Shown: positions 869-61,500 of the stretch, piece after piece
Layout of the letters: the number at the start of each line of letters is the position of its first letter
Numbering within the stretch: the first letter of the stretch is position 1
Assembly (NCBI GenBank): GCA_963700145.1
Contig: OY969474.1
Coordinates: 4,480,001 to 4,544,000 of the forward strand
From: an uncultured Acidobacteriota bacterium
Lineage (GTDB): Bacteria > Acidobacteriota > Thermoanaerobaculia > Multivoradales > UBA5704
Direction: 5' to 3'
Length of the DNA: 64,000 nt
Program-made: the position numbers and the translations under genes
Notes under the pieces: generated by a model
Told to the model about the DNA's origin: nothing
Database searches by the model: none
What the model saw: only the letters and a program-made list of their open reading frames with translations

Positions 869-3067
869 GTGAGTCCCCCCCTCGTCGGCGGGCTGCCGCC
901 GGTGCTCTTCGGGGTCGACCTGCCGCGCGAGGGCGACCTGTGTGCCGGGGGAGAGATCGAGGTGGCGGGCTGGGCGCTCGGCACCGGCTCCGCCGTCGCG
1001 TCGGTGGAGGTGCGGGTGGACGGCGAGGCGAGCTGCCTCCTGCCGGTCGGTGAGGTCCGCCTCGATGTCGCCATGTCTGTCGCGCTCCCCGGCGCCGCCG
1101 TCTCCGGCTGGCGTGGGCGCGCGGCGCTGCCGGCGGACGGTGGCGGCGAGGTCGCGTTCGTGGCGCGGCTGGCGGACGGCAGCGAGCACCCCTTGGCGAC
1201 CCGGCGAGTGCGGCGCGTCGAGGGCACGTCGGGGGTCCGCCTCGAGCCCCCCGTGGACGGCGCCGTACCGCGCGGCCTGCTCGGTCTGCGCGCGTGGTCC
1301 GCGCACCCGGTGCGCGAGCTGCGGGCGAGCGTCGACGGCGAGGTGGTCGCGACGCGGCGCGTGGCCGGCGAGCCTCCGCCCTGGGCGCTGGAGGTGGGTC
1401 TCGAGGGGATCGCGGGCGATCGTGCACGCCTGTGCGTCGTGGGCGTCGATGCGGCGGGGGAGCCGACGCCGCTCCTGTTCGACGCGACCTTGCCCCTGCG
1501 GTCCCTAGCGCCGGAGGAGGGCTGGCTCGGCGGGATCGACGTCTGTTGCGTGATGGAGGGGGGCGTGCTCCTCGTTCAGGGGTGGGTCTGCTGCCGCGCC
1601 GCGGAGGTCGCACGCGTCGAGATCTCCGCGAACGACCTGCCGCTGGGCCGCGCGCAGCTCGGGGCGCCGCGGCCCGACGTCGCCGATCGGCTGGCGCTGG
1701 CCGACGCGCCGGTCGCGGGGTTCGAGATGATGGAGCCTCTGCCGGAGCGAGCGGGGGGCGAGTTGATGCTGGTCGTCGCCGCGATGAACCTGCGCGGCGA
1801 GCGCTGGACGATCTCCCGGCGCCTGAGCTCGGCGCCGGCCACGGTGCCGGGAGCGGCAGTCGGCGCCGGTGAGAGGGGCACCGCGGGTCGCGGTCGCTCG
1901 CGATCCGCGGGCGGCGGGCGCGGTGTCCGCCGCGTCCGCGTCTACGCCCACGCCTTGAGCTACGGCGGCGCGCAGCTCTACCTGCACGAGCTGCTGCGCC
2001 GGCTGCTGCCGCTCGGCTCCCTAGAAGTCACCTTCGTCGCCCCGGCGGACGGGCCGCTGCGCCAGAGGACGGAGGAGCTCGGCATCGCGGTGGAGATCTG
2101 CGGTCCCTACCCGCGTCACGGCGGCGACGAGCGCGCGGAGTGGATGCGGCGCGAGGGGGAGCGGCTGCGCGCCGCGGGCTGCGACGTCGTGCTCGTCAAC
2201 TCCCTCGGCAGCTTCGCCCCCGTCGAGCTGGCGCAGGAGCACGGGCTGCCGACGGTCTGGGCGATCCACGAGAGCTTCCCCTTCGAGGTGTTCTGCGCGC
2301 TGTCGCGGATCGAAGGCGAGGCGCGCGAGCAGTTCCGCGCCGCGCTCGGCGGCGTCACCGTCGCCGTTTTCGTGGCCGAGGCGACGCGAGCGCTCCTGGC
2401 GCCGCAGGTGGCGCCCGGCCGGGCGCGGGTGATCCGCTACGGCGTCGACACCGCCGCGATCGCGGCCTTCACCGCCGGCTTCGACCGCGCCGCCTTCCGG
2501 CGGCGCCATGGCATCGGCGAGCAAGACCGCGTGATCCTCTGCGTCGCCAGGACCGAGCCGCGCAAGGGCCAGGCGCGCCTCTGTCAGGCGTTCCGGCTGC
2601 TCGATCGCCAGCCGACCCCGACCCATCTGGTGCTCCTGGGCGACACCGGGAACCCGTACGCCGCGATGGTACGGGAGGCCCTGGCGCGGCGGCCGCCGGC
2701 CAACCCCGTGCACCTGCTACCGCTGACCCCCGACGTGCTCCCCTGGTACGCCGCCGCCGACTTCGAGGTGCTGGCCTCCGACCTGGAGTCGATGCCCCGC
2801 TCCACGATCGAGGCGATGGCGGCGGGTGCGGTGGTGGCGGCCACGGCGGTGTTCGGCGTGCCCGAGCTGATCACCGACGGCGTCGACGGCCTGCTCTGCG
2901 AGCCTAACGACCTGCGCAGCCTCCACGACCTGTTGCTGCGGCTGCTCGCCCTGTCGCCGGAGCGGCGGGCGGCGATCGCCGAGGCCGGGCGGCAGCGGGT
3001 GCTGCGGCACCACGACTCAGCGGGCTACGCCGCCGAATACCACCGGCTGCTGCTGGCGCTCGCGTAG
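869..3067 (+). CDS. GT4 (GT-B) glycosyltransferase with repeated N-terminal beta-rich domains
   Basis: C-terminal half has YGGAQLYL, PRKGQ, SDLESMPRSTIEAMAAG, GVPELITDGVDGLL; N-terminus has two similar segments (GW...RxDVA...G[WF]). Confidence 0.85.
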   Translation: MSPPLVGGLPPVLFGVDLPREGDLCAGGEIEVAGWALGTGSAVASVEVRVDGEASCLLPVGEVRLDVAMSVALPGAAVSGWRGRAALPADGGGEVAFVARLADGSEHPLATRRVRRVEGTSGVRLEPPVDGAVPRGLLGLRAWSAHPVRELRASVDGEVVATRRVAGEPPPWALEVGLEGIAGDRARLCVVGVDAAGEPTPLLFDATLPLRSLAPEEGWLGGIDVCCVMEGGVLLVQGWVCCRAAEVARVEISANDLPLGRAQLGAPRPDVADRLALADAPVAGFEMMEPLPERAGGELMLVVAAMNLRGERWTISRRLSSAPATVPGAAVGAGERGTAGRGRSRSAGGGRGVRRVRVYAHALSYGGAQLYLHELLRRLLPLGSLEVTFVAPADGPLRQRTEELGIAVEICGPYPRHGGDERAEWMRREGERLRAAGCDVVLVNSLGSFAPVELAQEHGLPTVWAIHESFPFEVFCALSRIEGEAREQFRAALGGVTVAVFVAEATRALLAPQVAPGRARVIRYGVDTAAIAAFTAGFDRAAFRRRHGIGEQDRVILCVARTEPRKGQARLCQAFRLLDRQPTPTHLVLLGDTGNPYAAMVREALARRPPANPVHLLPLTPDVLPWYAAADFEVLASDLESMPRSTIEAMAAGAVVAATAVFGVPELITDGVDGLLCEPNDLRSLHDLLLRLLALSPERRAAIAEAGRQRVLRHHDSAGYAAEYHRLLLALA

Positions 3068-3122
3068 CTCGAGGAAGATGCGGAGCGTCAGAGGTACGAT
3101 CCACGCCGGGAGGTGAACCCGC

Positions 3123-3572
3123 ATGGCCACCGACGCCAACAAGGAGCTCGCGGCGGAGCTCTTCGCCCGCATCAGCGCCAACGACGTCCCCGGCGCCCTC
3201 GACACCCTCGCCGACGACGCCACCTGGTGGATCGCCGGCAAGCCCGACGCCCAGCCCGCCTCCGGGATGCACGACAAGGCCTGGATCGCCGGTCTCTTCC
3301 ACCGCATGACGAGCCAGCTCGACGGCCCGATGCGGATGACGGTAAAAGGTCTCGTCGCCGAGGGCGACAAAGTCGCCGCCGAAGTCGAGGGCCACGGCAC
3401 CCTGCGCGACGGCCGCCGCTACGACCAGGAGTATCACTTCGTCATGACGCTCCGCGACGGCAAGATCTCCACCGTCCGCGAGTACCTCGACACCCAGCAG
3501 GTCTACGCCACCTGGTTCGCGCGCCCCGAACAGCCGGCGACTGCGATGCCGGAGGTCGCCGCGCGACCCTGA
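3123..3572 (+). CDS. SnoaL/NTF2-like (ketosteroid isomerase-like) protein
   Basis: LADDATWW, VAEGDKVAAE, YHFVMTLRDGKISTVREYLDT; GGAGG RBS upstream. Confidence 0.9.
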   Translation: MATDANKELAAELFARISANDVPGALDTLADDATWWIAGKPDAQPASGMHDKAWIAGLFHRMTSQLDGPMRMTVKGLVAEGDKVAAEVEGHGTLRDGRRYDQEYHFVMTLRDGKISTVREYLDTQQVYATWFARPEQPATAMPEVAARP

Positions 3573-7124: not shown

Positions 7125-8081
7125 ATGGCTTGGAAGCCCGCGACCTCGCAGCTCTCGTTGGTCCTCCCTGGCGCCCCGGCGTCACAGTTTCATTCTACAG
7201 ATGTTGAGGTCAGAACCCGCAAGTCCAGGCGCGCTGGCAGCCTGATCCGGCAGGCGCTCTACCTCGACCAGGAGGATGCCTACGCCGCCGGCGAGGTCGG
7301 TTTCCTGGCCCGGGCGCTCGTCCAAGCCACGCTGCCCCACAGCGACCCGAAGACCAACGAGTTCGTGCGGCGGAACGGCCACTTCACGCTGTCGATCATG
7401 GCGCCCAAAGACGTCGGCCTCCCCTACGGCCGCTATCCTCGCTTGGTTCTGGCCTACCTGAGCACCGAGGCGGTCCGGCGAAAGAGCCCCGACGTCGAGC
7501 TCGGCAGCCACTTCTCTCACTTCTGCGCCTCCCTCGGCATCCCACCGACTTCCGGGCCTCGGGGCTCGCTGCCAATGCTCCGCGACCAGATGCAGCGCCT
7601 CTTCGCCTCGACCTTCCAGTGCATCTTCCATGACGAGAGCAAGGGCAGCCACGCCGGCGACGGCTTCCTGGTCGCCGAGAAGCGGGAGCTTTGGTGGGAT
7701 CCGCGACACGACAGGGGTGAGCTCTCGTGGGGCTCGCACGTGGTCCTCTCGGACCGGTTCTTCCGCGAGGCGACTGAGGCACCGGTGCCGCTTGATCTGC
7801 GGGTCCTGCGCGCCCTCCGATCGCCGTTCGAGATCGACATCTACATCTGGCTCACCTGGAGGTTCTTTCGGCTGCGCCGGCCGGTGACCATTCCTTGGCC
7901 GTCGCTGGCGCTCCAGTTCGGCTCGGGGTACGCGAACCCGCGGCACTTCAAGAAGCGGTTCCTCGGCTACCTCCGCGGGGTCATCGACTACTACCCGAAT
8001 GTGAGGCTGGAGAGCTCGTCAGCGGGGCTGCTGCTCAAGCCGTCGCCAACGCACATCGAGCCACGGCCGGCGAAGCGTTGA
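7125..8081 (+). CDS. repA: Plasmid replication initiator RepA (RepA_C family)
   Basis: QATLPHSDP...RRNG...GLPYGRYPRL...TEAVR and DIYIWLTWR motifs typical of RepA_C proteins; start uncertain. Confidence 0.85.
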   Translation: MAWKPATSQLSLVLPGAPASQFHSTDVEVRTRKSRRAGSLIRQALYLDQEDAYAAGEVGFLARALVQATLPHSDPKTNEFVRRNGHFTLSIMAPKDVGLPYGRYPRLVLAYLSTEAVRRKSPDVELGSHFSHFCASLGIPPTSGPRGSLPMLRDQMQRLFASTFQCIFHDESKGSHAGDGFLVAEKRELWWDPRHDRGELSWGSHVVLSDRFFREATEAPVPLDLRVLRALRSPFEIDIYIWLTWRFFRLRRPVTIPWPSLALQFGSGYANPRHFKKRFLGYLRGVIDYYPNVRLESSSAGLLLKPSPTHIEPRPAKR

Positions 8082-8098: not shown

Positions 8099-8131
8099 GC
8101 ACAAAAGTTAACCCTGGGTTAACATTTGCGC
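8099..8131. promoter_or_regulatory. Inverted repeat upstream of abiEi (candidate autoregulatory operator)
   Basis: GTTAACCC-T-GGGTTAAC (8107-8123) with imperfect outer arms, 11 nt before the ATG at 8135. Confidence 0.6.
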
Positions 8132-8134
8132 GCC

Positions 8135-8734
8135 ATGGGCACCGTAGCTCCGAAGGCACGGAACCAGCCGGATTGGGATGGCCTCTTCACCGTCGCGCAG
8201 GCCCAGAGCGGCTACTTCACGACGGCTCAAGCCGCCCAGTCGGGCTATTCGCGTCCACTCCTTCACAAGTACCTGGCGACGGGGAAGGTGGCGCGCGTGC
8301 GACGTGGCGTCTACCGCGTCGTTCACTTCCCGGCCAGCGAGCACGAGGACCTCATCGTGCTCTGGCTTTGGGCCGAGCAGGCCGGGGTCTTTTCCCATGA
8401 GACGGCCCTCGCGCTCCACGATCTCTCCGACGCGCTTCCCGGAAAGGTCCACATGACGGTGCCCCCGAGCTGGCGTCGTCGTCGTCTCCGAGTCCCTGCC
8501 GGCCTCGTCCTGCACTTCGCCGACGTCGGCGACGTCGATCGCGCCAGCTACTCGGCGGTGCCCGTCACGACGCCGCTCCGGACCCTGCGAGACTGCATCG
8601 AGGCCAACGTCGCCGCCGACCTCGTGCGGCAGGGGATTCTCCAGGCGCGTCGGCGCGGGATCGTTTCCGCGAAAGATGAAGCTCGACTTCTTGCCGGCCT
8701 TGGCAGCCAGGCTCGAACGGTAGCCGCGCGATGA
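8135..8734 (+). CDS. abiEi: Type IV toxin-antitoxin AbiEi antitoxin
   Basis: AQAQSGYFTTAQA wHTH, RVRRGVYR, SHETALALHDL, VTTPLRTLRD; ATGA overlap with toxin. Confidence 0.9.
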   Translation: MGTVAPKARNQPDWDGLFTVAQAQSGYFTTAQAAQSGYSRPLLHKYLATGKVARVRRGVYRVVHFPASEHEDLIVLWLWAEQAGVFSHETALALHDLSDALPGKVHMTVPPSWRRRRLRVPAGLVLHFADVGDVDRASYSAVPVTTPLRTLRDCIEANVAADLVRQGILQARRRGIVSAKDEARLLAGLGSQARTVAAR

Positions 8735-9654
8735 CCGCTCGCCAGTACGCAACGCCTCTGGCCTTCAAGCAGGCCCTCGAGCAACGGCTCAAGTCCTCGT
8801 CTGCCACCGGCGTCGACTTCGCTCGGCGCCGCCAGTTGCTCGTCTTCGATCGCTTCCTCGCTCGCCTGGCCCAGGTCGCTGGCGACGCCGTTACTCTCAA
8901 GGGTGGGCTCGTCCTCGAACTTCGCCTCGCTCGGGCGCGGACCACCAAAGACATCGACCTTCGCATGATGGGCTCGTCCGACGACGTGCTCGAGCGGCTC
9001 CAGGAAGCAGGCCGCCTCGACCTCGGCGACCACATGCTGTTCGAGGTCCAGCCGGATGCGGATCAGCCCGAGATCCAGAACGAAGGGATGCGCTACGACG
9101 GTTTTCGCTATCGCACCGAGTGTCGGCTCGCGGGCATGATCTACAGCCGACCGTTCGGCGTCGACGTAGCCTTCGGGGATCCGCTCGTGGGCCAACCGGA
9201 CATCGTCGTTGCCGACGACATCCTGGCCTTCGCAGGCATTGCCCCTCCGTCGCTGCGCCTGTATCCGGTCGTCTCCCACATCGCCGAGAAGCTTCACGCG
9301 CTCACGATGCCCCGGCCGAGGCCGAACACGCGGGTTCGAGATCTTCCCGACCTGGCACTGCTGGCGACGACCGGCCCGATCGAAGGGGCGGAGCTTCGCT
9401 TGGCGCTCGAGAGGACGTTCGGCTTCCGAGGCACTCACCCGCTGCCTGCATCCGTTCCCGCGCCGCCGGCGTTCTGGGAAGCCCCCTACGCTGCGATGGC
9501 CTCGGGCGACGAACTGATCTGGGGGACGCTTGCGGACGTCACGGGAGCCGTATCAGCCTTCCTTGATCCCGCGCTCGATTCGGCCAGCTGCGGGACCTGG
9601 GAGCCGACGGACTGGCGCTGGGACGCCGCTCGTGAGGCGCCCGCGCACCGATGA
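8731..9654 (+). CDS. abiEii: AbiEii nucleotidyltransferase toxin
   Basis: LKGG...RTTKDID, AEKLHA, NTRVRDLPDL motifs. Confidence 0.9.
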   Translation: MTARQYATPLAFKQALEQRLKSSSATGVDFARRRQLLVFDRFLARLAQVAGDAVTLKGGLVLELRLARARTTKDIDLRMMGSSDDVLERLQEAGRLDLGDHMLFEVQPDADQPEIQNEGMRYDGFRYRTECRLAGMIYSRPFGVDVAFGDPLVGQPDIVVADDILAFAGIAPPSLRLYPVVSHIAEKLHALTMPRPRPNTRVRDLPDLALLATTGPIEGAELRLALERTFGFRGTHPLPASVPAPPAFWEAPYAAMASGDELIWGTLADVTGAVSAFLDPALDSASCGTWEPTDWRWDAAREAPAHR

Positions 9655-9665
9655 AACTGTGACGG
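9647..9665 (+). repeat. Isolated iteron copy
   Basis: ACCGATGAAACTGTGACGG, identical to 14685-14703. Confidence 0.85.
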
Positions 9666-9708
9666 GGCGCCGCCGCGACGCCAGAGGCTGGCGCCGTGCT
9701 CGGGCCGT

Positions 9709-11181
9709 CTAGGTCAGGAGGAACGAGGGGGCGTAGCCCGGCTGCTGATCCTCCATGACCTCAACCTCACGCGCTACAGCGTTCAATTGGTGCCCGAGGA
9801 AGCAGGCGCCGCTAAGCGGGCCGAAGTAGAAGAGCAGAAGCCGCCTGGCGCCGTGCTCTTTCACGAAGGAGCGCATCCGCTCCTTCGTACGTCGCGCGAA
9901 TGCCACTACGTCTGCCGCCGAGCCGAAACACTCGCGGCCGAGCTCCCGGTCAGGGCGTAGGAACAAGACGGCTTGTGCCGCCAGGGTCGCCTGCAGGTAC
10001 CTTCGGACGTCGTCATCGAGCGACCCTGTAACGCTGATTCCGACAGCGACGGAGGAGCGATCGCCACCCTCGATCTGCTCCCGGCCGTGTTCGAGAACAT
10101 CGAGGGTAGACGGCAGCGCATCGGTGCGCCAGAGCTTTCCCTGCTGGTCCACCTCGACCGTGTAGCGCGCGACGTCGGCGAACGTGTGTCCAAAGGCAAA
10201 CCACGCCGACAGCCGCGAGAGTCCTCGCGCGCGAATCAGGCGTGCCGTCGAGCTCGTGTTGAGCTGTCCCTCGAGGGCGCGGAGCTCGGGGAGCATCTTC
10301 TCGTTCCACGCCGCCGGGTCCAGGACGCGGTGTCCTCTCTTCTGCTCGTCGCCTTCGAAATATCCTCGCCAGTCGAGCAGGTGATCGGGAGGCACTTCGA
10401 ACCGCTGCTGCTTCACGGTCGAGAGGTAGACGGTAGTCGCTGGCTCGCTGCTGGCCGGCAGGTGAAGGCCATGCTCGGCCAGTAGCGCCTCAACGTCAGC
10501 GCGCCGCCGGGCTCCTCGCGCTGCCTTGACGAGGTTCCTCACGATGCCGACGCCGATCAACAGCGCCGCTGAGTCGTGCCGGAGGCCAAGGTGCTCCATT
10601 CGTTCGGCGACGCGCGCCTCCAACTCCTCCGCACAGTCGAAACCGAGGCGTAGCCGTAGCGAGCCGGCGAAGGCGCGGAACTCTTCCTCCTTGATCGAGA
10701 GGTGACTCAGCCACTGGTCGCGCGCCTTCCCGAGGGCGCCTCCCGGCGACGCCGTAAAGAAGTCCTCCGACAGCGCGCAGTCCGTACCCCGAATGCATTC
10801 TCTGACGCGGTCGGCTGGATCCCACGTCCAGTTGCTGACCAGCCGCAACTCGATCGGGAACTCGGCGTCAGTGCGCAGTGCCCGCCACGTCTCGTGGAAC
10901 TTCCTGAGCAGGCTCCTGCCCTTGCCTCTTGCATCGAGGAAGGTGTCCGTGGAGTACTGACTGCGCTGGTCGACGTGGTACTTCACCTGGAGGAACAAGT
11001 TAGGCCGAGTTGCCTGCTCCTCGTACTCCATCGTGATGTCGTCAACGAAGGCGGCATCCGGGTCCTCGATGGTGACGCTCCGGAGGTGACTCTTCGGCAT
11101 GAGCAACTCCAGCAGGTGCAACCAGCCGATCAGATGCTGGTAGTCGTCACCAGCGAGCCGGGCCGCAACCTGGTTTGCCAT
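9709..11181 (-). CDS. cap4: CBASS effector, Cap4-type restriction-like nuclease + SAVED domain
   Basis: N-terminal GDDYQ...VDDI...QVKYH PD-(D/E)xK-like motif; C-terminal SAVED-like LSAWFAFGH...LFYFGPLSGACFLGHQLN; start MANQVAAR coupled to the cyclase stop. Confidence 0.85.
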   Translation of the reverse strand: MANQVAARLAGDDYQHLIGWLHLLELLMPKSHLRSVTIEDPDAAFVDDITMEYEEQATRPNLFLQVKYHVDQRSQYSTDTFLDARGKGRSLLRKFHETWRALRTDAEFPIELRLVSNWTWDPADRVRECIRGTDCALSEDFFTASPGGALGKARDQWLSHLSIKEEEFRAFAGSLRLRLGFDCAEELEARVAERMEHLGLRHDSAALLIGVGIVRNLVKAARGARRRADVEALLAEHGLHLPASSEPATTVYLSTVKQQRFEVPPDHLLDWRGYFEGDEQKRGHRVLDPAAWNEKMLPELRALEGQLNTSSTARLIRARGLSRLSAWFAFGHTFADVARYTVEVDQQGKLWRTDALPSTLDVLEHGREQIEGGDRSSVAVGISVTGSLDDDVRRYLQATLAAQAVLFLRPDRELGRECFGSAADVVAFARRTKERMRSFVKEHGARRLLLFYFGPLSGACFLGHQLNAVAREVEVMEDQQPGYAPSFLLT

Positions 11182-12071
11182 CAGGACAGCGGGAACAACG
11201 GGCCGAGCAGTGCCCGCCACGCGCTGAGAGCGGCGCCGCCCTTCCCTCCCCGCGCCAAGTGGATCGCCTCCGTTGCCGCACCGCCGGCCGAGCTGAGGGC
11301 TGCTCTCGCGGACGCACACAGGTTGGCGTCCATCTTGTCGCTCACAGGTGGGCCGAGACCGGCCGGGTCAGCCCAGGTTTCGTGGATGCGGTCTGCGAGC
11401 GCGTGGAAGAAGCCCTGCATCTCGCGATCGAACTCGCCCCCGAAAGGAGGGTGCAGAACCTCGAGCGCCATCACTTCGACTAGGAAGGACGGCTTGACAA
11501 CCTTCCCCTGGTGGTTGTTCCAGTACTTCATCATTCTGACGAGAGCCTTCCACTCGCCGCTGTACGCTTGCTGTGCGTCAACCGCCTTCTGCTCGTGCAC
11601 CTTCGGGTTCGTGCTGGTCCAGCCTGAGCTCGCCTGCGTGTCTGGGATCTCGAAGTAGTCGTCCTTCGCGAACGCCGGCACAACATCGAAGCTCATCACT
11701 TGCTCGTCGGTCTGGTCGTCGGTCGAGACGACGCCGAAGTCAACGCTGACAGACCGGCGCTGCATCGCCACGCAGTCGCGGCCGTACTTTTCAGCGAGTG
11801 CCGACTCGACATCAGCGAGGAGTACAGTCGGCACCTTCGACCGATAGTGCCGCTCCTTCGCGCCCAGAACGCAGAAGATGTCCACGTCCTTCAGCGGCTT
11901 CGTTTTCGTCCAACGCTTGTAGGAGCCGGTGAGGAAGTCCGTCTCGATGTCGAACTTCGTGTCCATGTGCTCGCGGATCTCCCGCTGGCGGCGCGAGGCG
12001 TCCTTCTGCTCCTTGTCGGTCAGCTCCAGCCGGCTCTTGAACTTCCGGAATGCCTCGTCGATCGTCAGCAT
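11181..12071 (-). CDS. cdnD: CBASS CD-NTase, CdnD-like cyclic oligonucleotide synthase
   Basis: MLTIDEAFRKFKSRLEL...FLTGSYKRWTKTKPLKDVDIF...FDVVPAF...TNPKVH, closely resembling P. aeruginosa CdnD as recalled. Confidence 0.9.
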   Translation of the reverse strand: MLTIDEAFRKFKSRLELTDKEQKDASRRQREIREHMDTKFDIETDFLTGSYKRWTKTKPLKDVDIFCVLGAKERHYRSKVPTVLLADVESALAEKYGRDCVAMQRRSVSVDFGVVSTDDQTDEQVMSFDVVPAFAKDDYFEIPDTQASSGWTSTNPKVHEQKAVDAQQAYSGEWKALVRMMKYWNNHQGKVVKPSFLVEVMALEVLHPPFGGEFDREMQGFFHALADRIHETWADPAGLGPPVSDKMDANLCASARAALSSAGGAATEAIHLARGGKGGAALSAWRALLGPLFPLS

Positions 12072-12075
12072 CGCT

Positions 12076-12579
12076 TTACACTCTCCGGTAGTACGTCGCG
12101 CCGGCACCGAGCCCGCTGGCATCCACGGTGGTCCCGATGCTCTGCCGGACGAAGCCAGCCGTTGACCGGTAGGTCGTGCTTGACCAGCCGGAGACGTTAG
12201 GGCGCCCCGCCTTGGTGTGCACCACCACGCGATAGTCGCAAGTCGATGGCCACAAGCCCTGCTTCTGGATCGCATATCGAATCTGGTCGGTGTCGATCCA
12301 GAAGGCACCGGAACCGTCGGTCCATCCGTAGGCGATCGAGAAATCCCACCGTCCGACAAGCGCATCGGTCCGCGGGTTGAATACTTCGAGCGTGACAGTT
12401 TCGAGATCACGCGTCGTGATCCAGGTCGAGAGCCCTCGCTCGAGGTTCGTCCAGTCGTCCGCGATCTTGCTCGGATCCAGGCCGCTCTTCTTGATGATCT
12501 CTTGGAGGCAGTACAGCAGGTTGTTCGTCACGTAGGTGACGGAATGGGTGTACGTGTTGACGGCGACGAAGGTGCTCAT
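12076..12579 (-). CDS. cap7: Bacterial HORMA protein (Cap7/HORMA2)
   Basis: TYTHSVTYVTNNLL...SGLDPSK...LERGLSTW...GRPNVSGWS; position within type III CBASS. Confidence 0.85.
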   Translation of the reverse strand: MSTFVAVNTYTHSVTYVTNNLLYCLQEIIKKSGLDPSKIADDWTNLERGLSTWITTRDLETVTLEVFNPRTDALVGRWDFSIAYGWTDGSGAFWIDTDQIRYAIQKQGLWPSTCDYRVVVHTKAGRPNVSGWSSTTYRSTAGFVRQSIGTTVDASGLGAGATYYRRV

Positions 12580-13046
12580 GGCCGCAGGAAGGACTCCAGG
12601 TTGATGCTCGCCTCCGAAGCGGAGGTCTTCTCTTCAGTGTCAGGGGGAGACGTCTCCGCGAGGTCGCGGGCGGTGACCCGTGACGAGTGTCGCTTGAGGC
12701 TGGCATTTACCCAAGAGAGATCGTCTGTGGGGCAAGGTAGCGACATGGCCCAGGTTTCCGATTCGGCGGGCGAGCTAGGCAGAGCTGCCTCGTTCACGCC
12801 CTCACCCTCGATCGCTGCCTCTCCGTATACGCAGTACAACCGGATACGGGGGCCATTCCCGGTTACCACGATGGGAGACTCCTTCATCGCCTCGCGCGTG
12901 ATGAGGGATGACGCGATCCCGGTCACGCGCCGCAGTTCATCTTGGGCCGAGGTGTTCGTCGGCGCCACGAGGTCGATGACACGAAGCCACGTCTCGCTGG
13001 CGAGTCGGGCCGGAATCGACGCGAGCCTGCGCGCGACAACCGTCAT
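12576..13046 (-). CDS. cap8: Bacterial HORMA protein (Cap8/HORMA3)
   Basis: MTVVARRLASIPARLASETW...GPRIRLYCVYGEAA...SLPCPTDDLSWV; ATGA overlaps on both sides. Confidence 0.85.
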   Translation of the reverse strand: MTVVARRLASIPARLASETWLRVIDLVAPTNTSAQDELRRVTGIASSLITREAMKESPIVVTGNGPRIRLYCVYGEAAIEGEGVNEAALPSSPAESETWAMSLPCPTDDLSWVNASLKRHSSRVTARDLAETSPPDTEEKTSASEASINLESFLRP

Positions 13047-13972
13047 CGGATCTTCTCCGTGCTGCTCTTCTGCTCTGCCTTGGCCGCTTGCGCTGCCGCG
13101 AGGATGTCGGCGCCGGTCAGGGATGCTGGGTCGACAGCAACTTCCTTTCGCCGAGCGCAGGCGGAGACGACGACCTTCCGAATCTGGCGGCCGTCGAGCC
13201 CTTCGCAGACCGTCGCCGCCTTGGTAACGTCCTTGTCTCCATTCAGGCTCTTCAGCCGCGGGTACGCCTCGGCGAGCGCTGCGATCGTCGACAGGAGGAT
13301 CGAGTGACACGCCTCTGGGGTCGGAAGGCCGATCGTGCGCACGAGGTCGGCTCGCGACACCAGAGCGGAGTCGATCGCCCCAGGGAAATTGCTCGTGGCG
13401 ATGAATAGCAGCTTCTTCTGCTTCGCGGCGAGGTAATCCAGCTGCGCAAGGACCGCATCCGTCGCCCGGTGGACGTCGATCGGATTGGCTTCCAGGCTCA
13501 TCTTCGAGCGGTCAGCAGCGAGCGTCTCGACTTCATCGAGGAGAACGATGAGGGGGTCGCCCGCCTGCTCCGCGATGGTCTGCCCGAAGAGTTCGGTGAC
13601 GGCCTTCTGGCTCCGTCCCAGCCTCGCGCTTGCCAGCCCATGTGGCTCGACCTCGAGGTAGCGAAAGGCACCGAGTCCCTTCACAGCCGCGGCGATTCGA
13701 GAGGCAAGACCGCGTGCGAGAGAGGTCTTGCCGGTGCCCGGCGGCCCAACGAGGAGGAGTACACCGTGAAGCGGCACGAGTGCGGGGTTCACCCGGGGGC
13801 GGAGGGTGAAGTTGAGAACACCCTGAGCCAGGAGTTCGTCCTTCAGAGCCGGGGCGACAACGATGGCGTCCCACAGCGCATCGAAGTCGGCGTCCGGCAG
13901 TAGCCTGCTGTCGAGGATGCCTTCTGCCTCGACCCGCCACTCCTTCTTCGCTGCCGCCTGGTTGCTACGCAC
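13043..13972 (-). CDS. cap6: Trip13/Pch2-like AAA+ ATPase (Cap6)
   Basis: Walker A GPPGTGKT, Walker B LLDEVE, EANPIDVHRATDAVL, ATSN, SRAD. Confidence 0.9.
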   Translation of the reverse strand: MRSNQAAAKKEWRVEAEGILDSRLLPDADFDALWDAIVVAPALKDELLAQGVLNFTLRPRVNPALVPLHGVLLLVGPPGTGKTSLARGLASRIAAAVKGLGAFRYLEVEPHGLASARLGRSQKAVTELFGQTIAEQAGDPLIVLLDEVETLAADRSKMSLEANPIDVHRATDAVLAQLDYLAAKQKKLLFIATSNFPGAIDSALVSRADLVRTIGLPTPEACHSILLSTIAALAEAYPRLKSLNGDKDVTKAATVCEGLDGRQIRKVVVSACARRKEVAVDPASLTGADILAAAQAAKAEQKSSTEKIR

Positions 13973-13975
13973 TCT

Positions 13976-14623
13976 TCACTCGCTCTCTTTTGGGATCGTG
14001 GCGACGACAACACCCTGAAGCCGGAAGTCGGGGCCAACCACGATCGGTCGGTGCACAGGGTTCGTCGACATCGGTTCGAGCAGGATCGCGTCTCGCCCGA
14101 CGCGAAGGCGCTTCACGGTCGCGCTGTCGTCGATGAGTGCGACGACGTGCTCACCGGGCTCTGCGGTGTCCTGTTGCCTGACGAGCACAAGGTCACCGTC
14201 CTGGATCCCTACGCGGTCCATGGAGTCGCCCCGGACCCGGAGAATGAAGTAGCTCCAGCGCCCTCGAGCGAGGCTCGTCGAGACGGGGATATAGCTCTCG
14301 ACATTCTCAACAGCGAGGATCGGCTGGCCGGCCGCAACCTGGCCGATGACGGGCACCGGCACGGTATCGGTGCGGTCTGGTACTTCGGTGCCGGTATAGC
14401 GCCGCAGGACGCGGACGTTGCGCGCCCCCGCCGCGCGGTCGATATATCCGGCCTGTTGGAGGGCATCGAGGAACTGCGCGACGCTGCGTGGCGAGCGGAA
14501 CCCTCCTAACGCCTGCATCTCGCGCACACTCGGTGGTACCCCCTCGCGGGCCTGGTACTGGACGAGTCGCTCGAGGAAGAGCGACTGCTTGGGTGTGAGT
14601 TTCTCGGGACGGTCTTCTCCCAT
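13976..14623 (-). CDS. lexA: LexA-family repressor (S24 autoprotease)
   Basis: LTPKQ...PPSVRE...GFRSP wHTH; VAAG cleavage site; GDSM Ser and TVKR Lys catalytic motifs. Confidence 0.9.
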   Translation of the reverse strand: MGEDRPEKLTPKQSLFLERLVQYQAREGVPPSVREMQALGGFRSPRSVAQFLDALQQAGYIDRAAGARNVRVLRRYTGTEVPDRTDTVPVPVIGQVAAGQPILAVENVESYIPVSTSLARGRWSYFILRVRGDSMDRVGIQDGDLVLVRQQDTAEPGEHVVALIDDSATVKRLRVGRDAILLEPMSTNPVHRPIVVGPDFRLQGVVVATIPKESE

Positions 14624-14641
14624 GGAGCAGGATTATACACA
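14624..14641 (-). promoter_or_regulatory. -10 box (TATAAT) for the lexA-CBASS operon overlapping a DnaA box
   Basis: Minus strand TATAAT (14632-14637) 8 nt before the lexA ATG, no SD sequence; plus strand TTATACACA (14633-14641) fits TTWTNCACA. Confidence 0.55.
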
Positions 14642-14684
14642 AACGCGCCAATCCGCCGGAGTCGGCGTCGGGCCCGCGCCAGTA

Positions 14685-14847
14685 ACCGATGAAACTGTGA
14701 CGGTCAGACGCGCCCCTCTTTCCACAGCGGCCTGCGGATTCAGAGGAGTTTTCCAGATGAAACGGTGACGCCCCCACCGATGAAACTGTGACGCCCGTCG
14801 GCCTGGCACCGATGAAACGGTGACGCGGGCCCGATGATTCGGTGACG
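14685..14847 (+). repeat. Iteron array, candidate oriV
   Basis: Five copies of (CC)GATGAAAC[TG]GTGACG at about 14685, 14756, 14776, 14808 and 14831 (degenerate); DnaA-like boxes nearby. Confidence 0.8.
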
Positions 14848-15047
14848 CGACCTCGGTGCAAGTCATTGATGCTGCGGCACCTGCGCCGTCCCCCTGTAGT
14901 TCCCTGTAGATACTCCTCTAGCTCACCTCGTAGCAGCGCGACGGCGGCTGCGGAAAACAGCCAGGACCTGAGTCCGCAAGACCAGGGATCCGCGTGACGC
15001 TGCGCTCTCCCCCTCAACGCACGACCAGTCTCATCAGCCGCTCCGGG

Positions 15048-15093
15048 GCGTCAAGGCCGAGCCCTCCGGGTGGCCTGCGGCCAGCCTTGACGC
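15048..15093 (-). promoter_or_regulatory. Branched hairpin element upstream of ardC (candidate ssDNA promoter / ssi)
   Basis: GCGTCAAGG...CCTTGACGC stem enclosing two small hairpins; 38-nt core repeated with one mismatch at 46436-46473. Confidence 0.55.
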
Positions 15094-15186: not shown

Positions 15187-16119
15187 ATGTCGAAGGTCTA
15201 CGAGGTGATCACCGGTCAGATCGTGGAGCAGTTGGAGCGCGGGGTGGTTCCGTGGGCGCGGCCGTGGAAGGTGGATGGACTGGCGCCGTCGAACTTGGTC
15301 TCGCGGCGGCCGTACCGCGGGATCAACGTCTTTCTGCTCGGCTTCCGCGCGGCGACGACGCCGTGGTGGCTGACGTTCCGGCAGGCAAAGGCGCTGGGTG
15401 GCAGCGTGCGCGCGGGTGAGCGGTCGACGCCGGTGATCTTCTGGCGCTGGATCGACCGGGCCGAGCGCGGGATCGACGATGCGTCCTCCGGCAGCGAGCG
15501 GCGGCGCGAGCGCCTGCCGGTGCTGCGCTACTACTCGGTGTTCAACCTCGACCAGACCGAGGGGATCGACGTCTCGAAGGTCCCCGCAGTCGATGCTTCG
15601 GCTATCGACGGCGTACCGACCGCCGAAGAGATCGTCGCCCGGTTCCCGGATCCGCCGGCGATCGAGCACCTGGCGCAGCCACGGGCTTTCTATCGTCCGT
15701 CGACGGACAGCGTGACGATGCCGCCGAGAAACGCGTTCGAGCGGGCCGAGGGTTACTACTCGACGCTCTTTCACGAGCTCACGCACGCAACCGGCCACGC
15801 CAAGCGCCTGGCGCGGCCCGGCTTCGACAAGAACCACGCTTCGCCGTTCGGCTCCGAGCCGTACGCGCGCGAGGAACTGGTGGCGGAGTTGGGCGCCGCG
15901 TTCTTGTGCGGCGAGGCCGGCCTCGAGCCCGACATCTCGAACTCGGCGGCCTACATCGACCACTGGCGCCAGCAGCTCTCGCGCGACTCGCGCCTGGTGA
16001 TCACCGCCGCGCAGCAGGCGCAGCGGGCCGCCGACTTCATCCTCGGCCGCGTCGCGCGATCCGCCGAGGAATCGGAATCCCACTCGATGGAGGAAAGCCG
16101 AGAAGAAGAAGCAGCTTGA
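15187..16119 (+). CDS. ardC: ArdC-family antirestriction protein (ssDNA-binding + zincin)
   Basis: YEVIT..I...LERGVVPWARPW, YRGIN, WLTFRQA, FHELTHATGH, YAREELVAELGAAF. Confidence 0.92.
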   Translation: MSKVYEVITGQIVEQLERGVVPWARPWKVDGLAPSNLVSRRPYRGINVFLLGFRAATTPWWLTFRQAKALGGSVRAGERSTPVIFWRWIDRAERGIDDASSGSERRRERLPVLRYYSVFNLDQTEGIDVSKVPAVDASAIDGVPTAEEIVARFPDPPAIEHLAQPRAFYRPSTDSVTMPPRNAFERAEGYYSTLFHELTHATGHAKRLARPGFDKNHASPFGSEPYAREELVAELGAAFLCGEAGLEPDISNSAAYIDHWRQQLSRDSRLVITAAQQAQRAADFILGRVARSAEESESHSMEESREEEAA

Positions 16120-17490: not shown

Positions 17491-17853
17491 GTGACCCGCC
17501 GGGGGCGTCCGCGCAAGGACCCGGCGCGGGCGCGCGTCGTCAAGAACGGCGCGCATTTCACGCCGGCTGAAGACGGCCGCTTGCGAGATCGTGCCCGATC
17601 CCTCGGCATCACCGTCGCGGAGTTGTTGCGGGAGGCCGCCCTCGGTCGGCCCCTTCCCCGGCGTCACCAGCCCGACCCGATCGCGTCGGACCAATGGGTC
17701 GAGCTCGGCCGGCTCGCGGCGAACCTCAATCAGCTCCAGCGCGCGATCAACCGCGGACAGACCGAAGGCGTTCCGGTGGCGCTCGTCGAGGAGCTTCGCC
17801 GGTTGCTTCACGACGTCCGCCAGTCGCTGATCGGCAAGGCGGGCGCCGCGTGA
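17491..17853 (+). CDS. mobC: MobC relaxosome accessory protein
   Basis: RGRPRK, RHH-like segment, ELGRLAANLNQLQRAIN; overlaps relaxase start. Confidence 0.85.
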   Translation: MTRRGRPRKDPARARVVKNGAHFTPAEDGRLRDRARSLGITVAELLREAALGRPLPRRHQPDPIASDQWVELGRLAANLNQLQRAINRGQTEGVPVALVEELRRLLHDVRQSLIGKAGAA

Positions 17854-20096
17854 TTCAGAGCATTCACAAGGGGAAGGGCTTTCGCGGTGTCCTCAACTAC
17901 GTCTTCGGCCGCGCGAAGTCGCCGGAGCTCGTGGGCGGCAACATGTACGGCGAGGACCCGCGCGCCCTCGCGCAGGAGTTCGGCGAGTGGCGAGAGCTGC
18001 GGCCTGGATTGACGCGCGCCGTCTTCCATTCCTCTCTCTCCCTGCCGCACGGACCCACCGGGCGCGAAGAGCTGAGCGACGCGCAGTGGCGCGACGTTGC
18101 GGAGCGCTACCTCGAACACCTTGGCTACGGGCGCTCGCCGTTCGTCGTGGTGCGCCATCGCGACACCGAGCACGACCACGTCCATATCGTCGCGGCGCGC
18201 ATCGGCGCCGACGGTCGCGCTGTCTCCGACTCGCACGACTACCGTCGTGGCGAGGAGGTCCTCCGTCAGCTCGAGCGCGAATACGGGCTCACCCAGGTCA
18301 AGTCGGCGCACGAGGTCGAGAAGACTGCGATGCGCCCCGGCGAGATCCGCCAGCTCGAGCGCACGGGCGAGGTAAGCACTCGTCTTCGCCTGCAGGATCT
18401 GCTCGATCGCGCCGCCGCGGATCGGCCTTCGATGACCACCTTCCTCGATCGGCTGCGTGAGGCGGGTGTCGAACCGGCGCCGCGGGTGGCGACGACGGGG
18501 CACGTTTCGGGCATCTCCTACGGCCTCGACGGCACGAGCTTTCGCGGCTCGGCGCTCGGACGCGCCTATTCGTGGCGTGGTGTTCAAGAGCATCTCGGTG
18601 TCGACTACCAACCCGAGCGAGATCTCGGAGCGGTGCGCGCAGCGGCTAGGCCGGACCGCGGCACAAGCCACACGCCGACGCCTTGGTCGCCCGCGAGTCT
18701 CGAGGCGCTTCAGAAGGAGCTGCGGGTGCTTCCGAGCGTTGCGCGTCGCGGTGTCGTCTCGCGGGCCGCGTCGGGCCTGGCTCGAGCGGGAGCCGGTGCG
18801 CTCGACGGACCGGCCGATGCCGTACGCCTTGCGTACGCCCTGCGTTCTCCTCGGTCGGCGGTGCGCCACGTAGCACGCCGCACTCCGGGTCTCGGTGCCG
18901 TGGCGCCGATCCTCGACCTCGCCAACGCGGCGCGTTCGCCCCTCGGACTTCTGCTCTATGGCGCCCGCCTGGCGACAACTGCGGGTCGGCTGGCTCTGCC
19001 GGCGCTCGCGAAGAGCGCGGCTCCGAGTCCGCTGTCGCGCAGCGTTGCTGCGGCCTACGTCCGGGCGGCTGCTACAGGAGCGCCCTCGATGGGACTCTTT
19101 CTCGACCGCCTCGAGGCCGCTGGCGTCCGAGCGCTCCCGCTGCTCGGCCGTGCTGGCGACGTGCGGGCCATCGTCTACCGCTTGGGAGATGAGCTGATCC
19201 CTGGCCAGGAGCTGGGGCCGTCCTTCACCTGGACCGGCCTTCAACGGCGTCTCGGAGTGACCTATGAGCCGACGAGAGACCTTCCTCGAATCCGCGAAGG
19301 CCGCGAACGACCAGGCCCTGAGCCCGGCGCCGGTGCTCGCGACCAACGCCCCCGCGAGGAGCGAGCTGGCCGCGATCCTGGCCGCCGCGGTGGAGACGAA
19401 CCGGAGATTGGAGTCGGTGGAGCGAGCCCTTCGCGAGGCCCTGCCGGCGACGCGCGAACACGCGGCGCCGAAGGCCACTCGGAGCCGCGCGGCGTCGACC
19501 GTGGTGTGGGCGCTCGTGGCGGCCTTGGCCACACTGCTGGGGATCACGCTGCTTCGCCCCGAGTGGGCGCTGCGATCCCATCAGCGGGCCGAGCTGCTTC
19601 TGGGCCAGAGGCTCTACCAGCGACTCCAGCACATGGAGGAGCCGGACCGGCTCGAGGTGCTGAAGTCGCTCTGGGCGGATCTGCCACCGACGAGCGACTA
19701 GCGGCGGCGGCGCTTCGCGAGTCCTTGCGGCGAACGGGGACGCCGCCGTTGGCGAGCTACCACCGCCATCCCGCCTACTCGGCCAGCCTCGATCGGGCTG
19801 ACGCCGCCTGGGCGACCGCGGCCCTCCGGCGTGGGGTCGAGCCGCACGTCGTGCTTCGCGAGGTGGCGGAGCGCGGTGCGCGGGCCGCGGCCTCGAAGGA
19901 TGCCGCGTTGGCGCACGGCACGCGCGTCGTGGCGCGCGCGCTCGCGACGGTGCAGCCGGGTCGTGCCGTCGAGAAGACGGTGTCGATGACCGTCCAGGCG
20001 CTCGCTACCGCGGTCAAGGCCCCGATCGCGGTGGTCAAGGCACTGTTGATTGTCCGCAGCATCGTGCGCGAGCTATCGCAGGAGCGAGGCCGATGA
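17850..20096 (+). CDS. MOBP relaxase
   Basis: GKGFRGVLNY (motif I Tyr), VFHSSLSL (II), HRDTEHDHVHIV (III); GTG start at 17850. Confidence 0.9.
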   Translation: MIQSIHKGKGFRGVLNYVFGRAKSPELVGGNMYGEDPRALAQEFGEWRELRPGLTRAVFHSSLSLPHGPTGREELSDAQWRDVAERYLEHLGYGRSPFVVVRHRDTEHDHVHIVAARIGADGRAVSDSHDYRRGEEVLRQLEREYGLTQVKSAHEVEKTAMRPGEIRQLERTGEVSTRLRLQDLLDRAAADRPSMTTFLDRLREAGVEPAPRVATTGHVSGISYGLDGTSFRGSALGRAYSWRGVQEHLGVDYQPERDLGAVRAAARPDRGTSHTPTPWSPASLEALQKELRVLPSVARRGVVSRAASGLARAGAGALDGPADAVRLAYALRSPRSAVRHVARRTPGLGAVAPILDLANAARSPLGLLLYGARLATTAGRLALPALAKSAAPSPLSRSVAAAYVRAAATGAPSMGLFLDRLEAAGVRALPLLGRAGDVRAIVYRLGDELIPGQELGPSFTWTGLQRRLGVTYEPTRDLPRIREGRERPGPEPGAGARDQRPREERAGRDPGRRGGDEPEIGVGGASPSRGPAGDARTRGAEGHSEPRGVDRGVGARGGLGHTAGDHAASPRVGAAIPSAGRAASGPEALPATPAHGGAGPARGAEVALGGSATDERLAAAALRESLRRTGTPPLASYHRHPAYSASLDRADAAWATAALRRGVEPHVVLREVAERGARAAASKDAALAHGTRVVARALATVQPGRAVEKTVSMTVQALATAVKAPIAVVKALLIVRSIVRELSQERGR
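19264..19701 (+). CDS. Nested overlapping gene inside the relaxase (MobB/MbeB-like, coiled coil + TM helix)
   Basis: GGAG RBS then ATG; helical protein with TM segment VVWALVAALATLLGITLL; the relaxase frame is low-complexity over the same span. Confidence 0.6.
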   Translation: MSRRETFLESAKAANDQALSPAPVLATNAPARSELAAILAAAVETNRRLESVERALREALPATREHAAPKATRSRAASTVVWALVAALATLLGITLLRPEWALRSHQRAELLLGQRLYQRLQHMEEPDRLEVLKSLWADLPPTSD

Positions 20097-22740: not shown

Positions 22741-22779
22741 TCAACAACTGTTGACATACTCTCAACGCTTGTGTAGTGT
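22741..22779 (+). promoter_or_regulatory. sigma70 promoter of the trb operon with overlapping palindromic operator
   Basis: TTGACA (22751)-17 bp-TAGTGT (22774); TCAACA-AC-TGTTGA palindrome overlaps the -35. Confidence 0.65.
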
Positions 22780-23780
22780 CCCCCGCCATGCGGCCGGCAC
22801 CACACGACGAGCAGCGGCAGCGCTGGACTGAAGGCCTGATCCGCGAGCTGGGAGAAACCATCGTCGGCGCCCTCGGCAACGACGACGTGGTGGAGATTCT
22901 CCTCAACCCGGACGGTCGGATCTGGCTCGACTCGCGGACCGAGGGGATGTACGACAGCGGCTACCGCCTTCTCCCGCAGGAGGGTGAGGCGATCCTCGCC
23001 TCGATCGCCGGAATGCTCGGCACGCAGATCGACTCCGAGCACCCGATCATCGAGGCCGAGCTGCCGCTCGACGGGAGCCGCATCGAGGGGATGGTCCCAC
23101 CGCTAGTGGCGAACCCCAGCTTCGCGATCCGCAAGCGCGCCACCCGGGTGTTCCCGCTCTCGCACTACATCGAGTCCGGCTCGATGACGGTGACGCAGGC
23201 CGAGTTGCTCCGGGCAGCGATCGCCGAGCGGCGGAACATCCTGGTGTCCGGCGGTACCGGCTCCGGCAAGACGACGCTGGTCAACGCGATTCTCGACGAA
23301 ATGGTCCGGCTCGGCGAGCCGAGCGAGCGCTTCATCCTGCTCGAGGACACGGTGGAGCTTCAGTGCACGGCCGAGAACCACACGGCGCTCCGCACCACGC
23401 GCCACGTCGACCTCGCCACCCTGGTCAAGGCAACGATGCGCCTCAATCCGGACCGGATCATCATCGGCGAGGTTCGGGGCCGCGAGGCCCTCGACCTGCT
23501 CAAGGCCTGGAACACCGGGCATCCCGGCGGTTGCACCACCGTCCACGCCAACAACGCGGTCGCCGCTCTCCAGCGTCTCGACCAGCTCGCGCAAGAAGCG
23601 GGTGTTCCGACCCAGCGAGCGCTCATCGCCGACACCGTCGGCCTCGTCGTTCACATCGAGGGAGGGAGCCGCGGGCGTCGCGTCTCCGAGCTCGTCCGCG
23701 TCGCCGGCCTCGCCGGCGACGGCAGCTATCAACTCGAGCCCACCGCGGCTCGGACTACCGAGGAGGAGTTACAGCCATGA
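22776..23780 (+). CDS. trbB: P-type conjugative ATPase TrbB (VirB11)
   Basis: [41 protein letters not shown]. Confidence 0.95.
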
Positions 23781-45998: not shown

Positions 45999-46435
45999 TG
46001 ATGAGAACTCAGGCTGGGCTCTGCATTTCTAGCCGGTGGGACAACCGGGGGGCCATGGGGTGCGAGGCAAAGATGCGCCCCTGGCTGTGTGTCGAGCGGA
46101 AGCTGCCCGAGTCGGCAGCGCAATAGGACGGCGATCTGGTTAGGGTTTGCACCATTTCGCGTGACCGGTAGTGGCGAGTGGAGCTGATCAGGGCGCGGGC
46201 TGCCGAGTCTCAACCGGTCCCTACACTTCTCGCGAGCCAGGGACCCCAAGGGTACCGACGCGCCGAAATGTGCCCGTTTCAGCTTTCATTGATTATAGAA
46301 GAAGGTCTGCGCGTCGGAATCACGCCACTGATGAACGCCACGGGACCAAGTCGAGAGGATGTCTGCTAGTTCGCCCTCTCCCGGCCCGGTGTCGTCCATC
46401 GGCGCCCCACATTCGATTCCGCTGCTCGCGGCCCG

Positions 46436-46473
46436 CAAGGCCGAGCCCTTCGGGTGGCCTGCGGCCAGCCTTG
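46436..46473 (-). promoter_or_regulatory. Branched hairpin element upstream of radC
   Basis: 37/38 identical to 15052-15089. Confidence 0.55.
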
Positions 46474-46506
46474 TCGCGCCGCTGCGCGGCTACATCTCGG
46501 GTGGGC

Positions 46507-61498: not shown

Positions 61499-61500
61499 CC

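Follow-up and report, generated by a model that had tools for sequence, protein, structure and literature searches.

The subject of this analysis is a defence gene cluster within 64,000 nucleotides (nt) of the genome of an uncultured Acidobacteriota bacterium (contig OY969474.1, positions 4,480,001 to 4,544,000), a stretch that we call the window and to which coordinates refer unless another sequence is named. Reading of the sequence placed six tightly packed genes on its minus strand at 9709-14623, and these constitute a two-HORMA Type III CBASS (a system of antiphage signalling through cyclic oligonucleotides) headed by a separate and intact paralog of the SOS repressor LexA. We judge it probable that this paralog is a swapped-in, RecA-cleavable repressor, so that DNA damage, and likewise arrival in a new host, would induce the CBASS. 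Both the defence system and the repressor family are known; it is their regulatory pairing that we did not find in print.

The lexA-CBASS gene cluster

The first gene of the cluster, lexA (13976..14623, on the minus strand like the other five), encodes 215 amino acids (aa) with matches to PF01726 LexA_DNA_bind (6e-12) and PF00717 Peptidase_S24 (3e-28). Next comes cap6 (13043..13972; 309 aa), whose product is a TRIP13/Pch2-like AAA+ ATPase (PADLOC TRIP13 6e-126; Pfam AAA 7e-21). It is followed by the genes for a HORMA1-like protein (12576..13046; 156 aa; PADLOC HORMA PDLC00881 2e-52) and a bacHORMA_2 or HORMA2-like protein (12076..12579; 167 aa; PF18173 1e-73, PADLOC 5e-77), and then by a cdnD-like gene for a CD-NTase (11181..12071; 296 aa from the ATG at 12071; PADLOC cyclase PDLC00809 1e-124, SMODS 1e-18). 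The last gene encodes a Cap4-like effector (9709..11181; 490 aa) with an N-terminal PD-(D/E)xK-type nuclease and a C-terminal SAVED sensor (PADLOC SAVED3--SAVED_PDDEXK 2e-94 and Effector/Endonuclease 2e-77; Pfam SAVED 1e-19). The components of a Type III CBASS, namely a CD-NTase, HORMA proteins with a TRIP13 ATPase, and an effector with a cyclic-oligonucleotide sensor (SAVED), are all present. Their packing is tight: 3 nt separate the lexA stop codon from the GTG start of cap6, cap6 and the HORMA1 gene overlap by 4 nt (ATGA), the two HORMA genes also overlap by 4 nt, a 4-nt gap precedes cdnD, and cdnD and cap4 overlap by 1 nt (TGATG).

Comparison with solved structures gives the same picture of the CBASS proteins. 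The cyclase matches PDB 6p8u, 6p82 and 6p8j at 5e-100, the HORMA1-like protein matches 6p8p at 9e-36 and also 6p8s_C (molecule name 'HORMA1'), the HORMA2-like protein matches 6p8s_A and 6p8r at 7e-59, and the closest solved chains to the cap6 product are Pch2/TRIP13. The effector has a weak match, at 5e-6, to 7yib, 'CD-NTase-associated protein 4'. We take 6p8j, 6p8p, 6p8s and 6p8u to come from the two-HORMA system that Ye et al. 2020 described in Pseudomonas aeruginosa. The window shares with that system homologues of CdnD, HORMA1, HORMA2 and TRIP13, and differs from it in having a Cap4-like SAVED nuclease as effector and LexA as regulator.

The LexA paralog is a second copy beside the housekeeping LexA

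The paralog scores 45.6 bits against PF01726 (cut-off 23.7), as expected of a LexA-type winged helix-turn-helix (wHTH) protein, and it matches the Escherichia coli LexA chain 7ocj at 3e-26. Its VAAGQP segment (Ala98-Gly99) aligns with VAAGEP of E. coli LexA, its Ser134 with the catalytic serine and its Lys171 with TVKRL. Ala98-Gly99, Ser134 (in GDSM) and Lys171 (in TVKRL) do not vary among 27 clade members, whose identity to the window's protein is 52-92%, and this pattern argues for selection on self-cleavage.

The genome (5.46 Mb in one contig) contains two LexA_DNA_bind matches, which are the cluster gene and a second gene at 1.95 Mb, the host's housekeeping LexA, to which the paralog is 37% identical. 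The paralog is therefore a dedicated extra copy beside the housekeeping protein. It resembles housekeeping LexA in its domain pair, cleavage site and catalytic dyad; it differs in being a second, mobile copy with other recognition-helix residues, and a separate operator and a regulon of one operon are probable for it. Because the recognition-helix residues differ among the paralog, the host LexA and E. coli LexA, we infer a private operator for the paralog. RecA is encoded in the genome. In a tree of 114 LexA sequences, built by a quick method under LG+G4, the paralog falls in a clade of 20 metagenome sequences (SH-aLRT 96), and the host LexA lies elsewhere on a long branch.

A first-pass annotation of this DNA, made from the letters alone, had described a Type III CBASS on one strand, with gaps of 4 nt or less or overlaps, headed by a LexA-like repressor that keeps its wHTH, Ala-Gly cleavage site and Ser/Lys dyad. 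The spacing proved exact at all five junctions; Pfam, PADLOC, the genome search and the LexA comparison agree on the system and its head gene, and the Pfam matches and the 27-member alignment bear out the retained motifs. It had also suggested placing the paralog on a tree with the host LexA, and the two do occupy separate branches. Its description of the CBASS as self-contained stands as far as the repressor goes; RecA has to come from the host.

Related CBASS cassettes carry CapH/CapP-like genes at the same position

Of 400 other genomes of the class, ten have a TRIP13 relative, and in all ten it is followed by HORMA and/or CD-NTase matches, with the gene order kept up to the ends of the loci. 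Several of these loci carry other candidate regulator genes. At L114 and L115, where TRIP13 is 76-78% identical, the same strand carries genes for an HTH protein and a HEAGH peptidase; at L116 and L119 the HTH gene is divergent and accompanied by a gene for an HExxH peptidase, and at L120-L123 there is a divergent HTH gene. Regulator profile scans covered L115, L116 and L120, and in them the head genes of L115 score as capH (PADLOC 9.5e-14) and capP (4.6e-8). The extended L115 region (L115/L205) keeps all five CBASS genes, 64-76% identical to those of the window, and around this locus we found no genes of an integrative conjugative element (ICE) except an SSB gene, 36% identical, 5 kb upstream. 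Since the five genes are kept together without ICE surroundings and under a different head regulator, we read the core CBASS as a mobile cassette that travels from one context to another and exchanges its head regulator, the LexA of the window having been swapped in at the position of CapH/CapP.

Linkage of LexA and TRIP13 within the clade

Linkage was assessed by comparing the longest-contig sizes of 119 LexA matches with those of the 120 best TRIP13 matches. Fifteen sizes were identical, compared with a mean of 0.93 and a maximum of 5 in 400 offset controls. Among the shared sizes are 3265, 3587 and 3770 nt, and also 307,484 and 1,430,174 nt, and the LexA proteins on the size-matched contigs are about 57 to 84% identical to that of the window. 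One of the fifteen matches (1561 nt) is too short for both proteins and is probably due to chance. On shared contigs of 3.3-3.8 kb the lexA and TRIP13 genes must be close together.

A metagenome scan with the single LexA protein (27 loci) gave one close locus, L083, which is 100% identical and lies on a 1.7-kb contig that ends inside lexA. The best LexA in a scan of genome contigs was 53% identical among the matches listed, which were largely housekeeping LexA genes, so that the close clade was not recovered there as DNA. In viral contigs the best LexA was 45% identical and tblastn with the window's CBASS proteins found no match, which is a weak negative; the same tblastn missed the CBASS genes of L017, L027 and L068 that profiles later found. 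All LexA matches in the plasmid collection were below 41% identity, and the two contexts examined there held no CBASS.

LexA genes ahead of defence genes in other lineages

Of the 80 best LexA loci in species genomes, 76 entered the analysis; L024, L043, L044 and L049 were dropped because they offered no clean LexA frame. The sample is biased to LexA proteins resembling the query clade and its relatives are not independent, so that it shows recurrence and not a rate. With neighbouring open reading frames (ORFs) counted at PADLOC E<=1e-12, the first one or two same-strand ORFs downstream of lexA (86 ORFs at 50 loci) gave a defence match at 22 loci, and the two nearest ORFs upstream (117 ORFs at 65 loci) gave one at seven. 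CBASS-type genes lie downstream at seven loci, six with a cyclase (L017, L021, L022, L027, L037 and L068) and one, L019, with a 2TM effector only; the gap from lexA to the CBASS-type gene is -1 nt in L068, 14 nt in L027 and 24 nt in L022. The other downstream matches are two Thoeris loci (L013, L020), two loci associated with prokaryotic Argonaute (pAgo; L014, L025), five PDC candidates, one weak PbeA match and five methyltransferases. Upstream there are two methyltransferase-like genes, JetD in L027, a weak TIR match in L037 and three generic or doubtful matches, and none of these seven loci has CBASS genes upstream of LexA.

In eleven loci (L013, L014, L019, L020, L021, L025, L026, L028, L033, L035 and L037) lexA is followed after about 12 nt by a gene of about 80 aa for a DUF2188 protein (PADLOC candidate PDC-S16), which stands before variable defence genes. 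For L025, L026, L033 and L035 the assignment has Pfam or PADLOC confirmation, and for the other seven it is made by sequence likeness only. This lexA-DUF2188 pair precedes Thoeris, CBASS, pAgo-associated SIR2/TIR and a 2TM effector. At four Chitinophagaceae-like loci (L013, L020, L025 and L035) the two upstream ORFs are near-identical in size and position and the downstream genes vary; from the sizes and positions of those ORFs we read the site as a chromosomal hotspot. No LexA_DNA_bind gene other than the defence-linked one was found in the genomes of L013, L021, L022, L027, L005 and L017; the window's genome and the genomes of L003, L004 and L037 carry it as a second copy.

Taken over all loci, a same-strand lexA directly precedes CBASS of types I, II-short and III, Thoeris and pAgo-associated SIR2/TIR genes, in two separate LexA lineages and in no fewer than four named phyla (Acidobacteriota, Bacteroidota, Zixibacteria and two candidate-phyla-radiation lineages). 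We put forward tentatively, as an idea with somewhat less than even chances, that LexA serves immune operons as a modular front end that can be reused, often with a small DUF2188 gene directly behind it. If that were true, the sole LexA heading the Chitinophagaceae-like hotspot would place abortive-infection immunity inside the SOS regulon, and the ICE-borne paralog of the window would be a mobile, self-contained version of the same device, with a burst of expression in a new host. Among genomes, the closest relatives of the window's LexA clade have other neighbours: in L003 (7654-8998) and L005 (7642-9200) LexA is followed by a small ORF and a DNA methyltransferase, and in L004 (7852-11976) by a 1260-aa TPR-PIN protein.

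Proposed mechanism and alternative explanations

An autoregulated lexA as first gene, and LexA self-cleavage stimulated by RecA, are established knowledge. On these established properties, the intact motifs of the paralog and its positional equivalence with CapH/CapP we base the following proposal, in which DNA binding, cleavage and the inducing signals are all predicted. A LexA dimer would bind a predicted operator upstream of its own gene and keep lexA-cap6-HORMA1-HORMA2-cdnD-cap4 expression low. Filaments of host RecA would form on single-stranded DNA (ssDNA) arising from DNA damage, from phage replication or from an incoming conjugative strand, and would stimulate self-cleavage at Ala98-Gly99 by Ser134/Lys171, so derepressing the operon. 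The raised protein pool would then come under the usual CBASS control, with HORMA activating CdnD, TRIP13 reversing this, and the cyclic oligonucleotide activating the SAVED-nuclease Cap4. Because lexA is the first gene of the operon, the repressor would be remade and the system would reset. On transfer of the ICE into a cell that lacks the paralog, a burst of expression would be expected.

Several points weigh against this proposal. The presumed promoter/operator stretch (14624..14700, minus strand) contains two short palindromes near the lexA start (14667-14654 and 14630-14614); beyond these palindromes, of a kind common in GC-rich DNA, no LexA operator was identified in it, and a scan of the stretch upstream of lexA for a consensus sigma-70 promoter gave no match. 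Given that the 563-bp intergenic region is common to lexA and the divergent ardC-ssb genes, LexA may serve the element too. A single transcript of the six genes is itself a prediction from the sequence, and a look-up of RNA runs containing this DNA listed none. The apparent recurrence of lexA-TRIP13 linkage within the clade is read from equal contig sizes and so is indirect, and near-identical contigs from other samples represent the same ICE family and are not independent. LexA lies within 1.5 kb upstream of the CBASS in none of the ten other class genomes with this architecture, and a LexA at E<=1e-40 was found in 2 of 400 other genomes of the phylum, in neither case adjoining a CBASS; by these counts the arrangement is rare among species representatives. 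Finally, the CapW paper (PMC9122588) reports that phage protection did not need regulator-dependent induction. Transcriptional gating may likewise matter little for defence here, and in the light of the CapW result the gate may limit toxicity or add a second, damage-triggered mode.

With regard to the promoter itself, a perfect TATAAT lies at 14637-14632, 9 nt before the lexA ATG, which has no Shine-Dalgarno sequence; together these suggest that the lexA message is possibly leaderless.

SetR of the SXT-type ICEs and phage CI are S24 repressors that cleave themselves when triggered by RecA filaments, have an XRE-type HTH and control transfer or lysis. The paralog resembles them in being an S24 repressor on a mobile element, and it could mainly be the master repressor of the conjugative element, coupling transfer to the SOS response, with the CBASS as mere cargo. 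The cluster does sit inside the ICE, between the RepA_C/AbiE genes and the ArdC-SSB-NikA-relaxase-T4CP-VirB genes; lexA shares its divergent region with ardC, the near-identical copies from other samples represent this same element, and S24 repressors of ICEs and prophages are well established. We nevertheless consider this unlikely, given that related CBASS cassettes outside an ICE have their own CapH/CapP at the same position, that LexA and TRIP13 co-occur on contigs down to 3.3-3.8 kb, that the second RepA_C remnant of the genome has no LexA and that in other phyla LexA heads defence genes at chromosomal, non-ICE sites. Moreover, the N-terminal domain of the paralog is of LexA type and not of the XRE type of SetR and CI, repressors whose targets are transfer or lysis and not a defence operon. 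Repression of the element and repression of the CBASS are compatible with each other. The ICE, which the first-pass annotation had not seen, makes its idea of derepression on entry into a new host concrete, and at the same time it is what raises the possibility of an element repressor.

Alternatively, lexA and the CBASS could be neighbours without regulatory coupling, the CBASS being expressed from an internal promoter and LexA controlling itself or other targets. Defence genes cluster for reasons besides co-regulation, and the operator and promoter searches upstream of lexA found neither; yet the 3-nt lexA-cap6 gap and the overlapping start and stop codons along the cluster, the excess of defence matches downstream of LexA over upstream (22 vs 7 loci) and the equivalence of the lexA position with that of CapH/CapP make such independence improbable. 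A repressor of the CBASS that is not triggered by RecA, answering to some other cue or simply being lost on transfer or dilution, has a similarly slight chance of being correct. The fit of the paralog with host RecA is presumed, and its clade is distant from the host LexA (37% identity, separate branch); set against this are the invariance of the cleavage site and Ser/Lys dyad across the 27 clade members and the presence of RecA in the genome. A LexA paralog that both represses the CBASS and yields to RecA is the explanation we favour.

Comparison with known regulators of defence operons

CapH/CapP keep CBASS repressed and, on DNA damage, free it by proteolysis, as described in the preprint by Lau et al. 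(10.1101/2022.04.27.489752). Like CapH/CapP, which take the equivalent position in the nearest relatives of the window's CBASS, the window's LexA would be a repressor at the head of a CBASS operon. The difference is that CapH/CapP are two proteins, an XRE-type HTH protein and an ssDNA-stimulated metallopeptidase, whereas the window has one LexA-wHTH/S24 protein that would need host RecA; the PADLOC capH and capP models do not match the paralog, nor does any other PADLOC model, and the cluster has no second regulator gene. CapW/BrxR (PMC9122588) and CapK/CapS (PMC13373217) are likewise repressors of defence operons that respond to DNA damage, but through ssDNA binding by a WYL domain in the former and phosphorylation by a kinase in the latter, folds and signals that are unrelated to the window's LexA. 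A Pfam scan found no WYL or kinase domain in the cluster and hence not the wHTH-WYL-WCX architecture of CapW/BrxR.

The first-pass annotation had held that its authoring model knew of no description of this arrangement, and had proposed a search for recurrent lexA-CBASS linkage. The arrangement does recur, as judged from the contig-size matches and the seven CBASS-type loci, and we found no description in the literature of a LexA/S24 regulator at the head of a CBASS, within a coverage that left out Burroughs & Aravind 2020 and the CapH/CapP and CapW supplementary tables, which could list LexA-linked systems. The DUF2188 gene has been noted before: a TIR preprint mentions the Sediminibacterium magnilacihabitans defence island, which is our L013, with the DUF2188 gene and without LexA, and the CapH/CapP preprint (10.1101/2022.04.27.489752) refers to DUF2188 in operons with HTH and metallopeptidase genes, citing Burroughs & Aravind 2020.

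Three unrelated types of regulator of CBASS and other defence operons are thus in print (CapW/BrxR, CapH/CapP and CapK/CapS), and all respond to DNA damage. Should the SOS repressor, too, have been recruited repeatedly in several phyla, licensing by DNA damage would look like a convergent design rule for abortive-infection immunity and not a peculiarity of one family. Immunity would then be tied to RecA, itself a protein acted on by phages and plasmids, and counter-defence through inhibitors of the SOS response would be predicted. Carriage on a conjugative element would further predict a pulse of CBASS expression in new recipients.

A repeated motif and the surrounding conjugative element

Upstream of lexA lie five direct copies of a 16-nt motif, GTCACNGTTTCATCGG (14686..14846, minus strand), spaced by 68, 23, 32 and 22 nt. 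A sixth copy, which is perfect (9648..9663, minus strand), lies 46 nt beyond the cap4 stop codon, so that the array and this copy bracket the lexA-CBASS cassette. The window has seven matches to the motif where 1.65 are expected, and elsewhere in the genome the motif occurs once, at the 3' end of another RepA_C gene (L204 4999-5014), which is 74% identical to the repA of the window and has no LexA nearby. We considered the motif as a LexA operator and find this unlikely, because its core is asymmetric, one copy lies past the 3' end of cap4 and the other genomic copy is without LexA. It is probably an iteron-like backbone feature of the element, and could serve the element family as an iteron or for recombination.

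The lexA-CBASS cluster is cargo of an ICE, the window encoding the relaxase, T4SS-DNA_transf, VirB4, VirB8, VirB9, VirB10 and VirB11 families of a conjugation system. To the left of the cluster are RepA_C (7125-8081) and, directly beside the CBASS cassette, an AbiEi/AbiEii pair (8126-9654); a second AbiEi/AbiEii pair, 77% and 67% identical to this one, is found at 3.21 Mb in the genome. To the right are ArdC (15187-16119), SSB and a NikA-like protein, and then a MobA/VirD2 relaxase (17694-20096) followed by the coupling protein, VirB11, VirB4, VirB8, VirB9, VirB10 and ParA/ParB. Neither an integrase nor the ends of the element were found in the window.

Contigs from two public runs span the lexA-cap6 junction at about 94-96% identity, run-contig joints with sides of 20-22 letters having been left out as unreliable. 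A 10.3-kb contig from run X3 spans 9641-15073 unbroken at about 94% identity and has 4,007 additional letters at 9544 to 9641, a place between AbiEii and the sixth motif copy. In view of this insertion the border looks like an insertion point or hot spot for cargo.

Further defence genes lie to the right. A Gabija pair (GajB 54139-56187, 3e-172; GajA 56194-58215, 8e-192) may be on the same ICE, whose right end was not found in the window. At the other side, G+C content drops from about 0.75 to 0.66 near 3000 (2500-3500), which may mark the left border of acquired DNA. ARAGORN reports a tRNA-Asn of 97 nt on the minus strand at 23492-23588, inside a VirB11-like ORF (22776-23780), and this call is probably false. 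Likely cargo also includes a PLD-domain protein with a weak ZacB match (35173-37719), a RadC-like JAB protein (46171-47040), a DUF6094 methyltransferase-like protein of 1225 aa (48214-51891) and an SbcCD-like pair of an SMC_N protein and a metallophosphoesterase (58304-62643).

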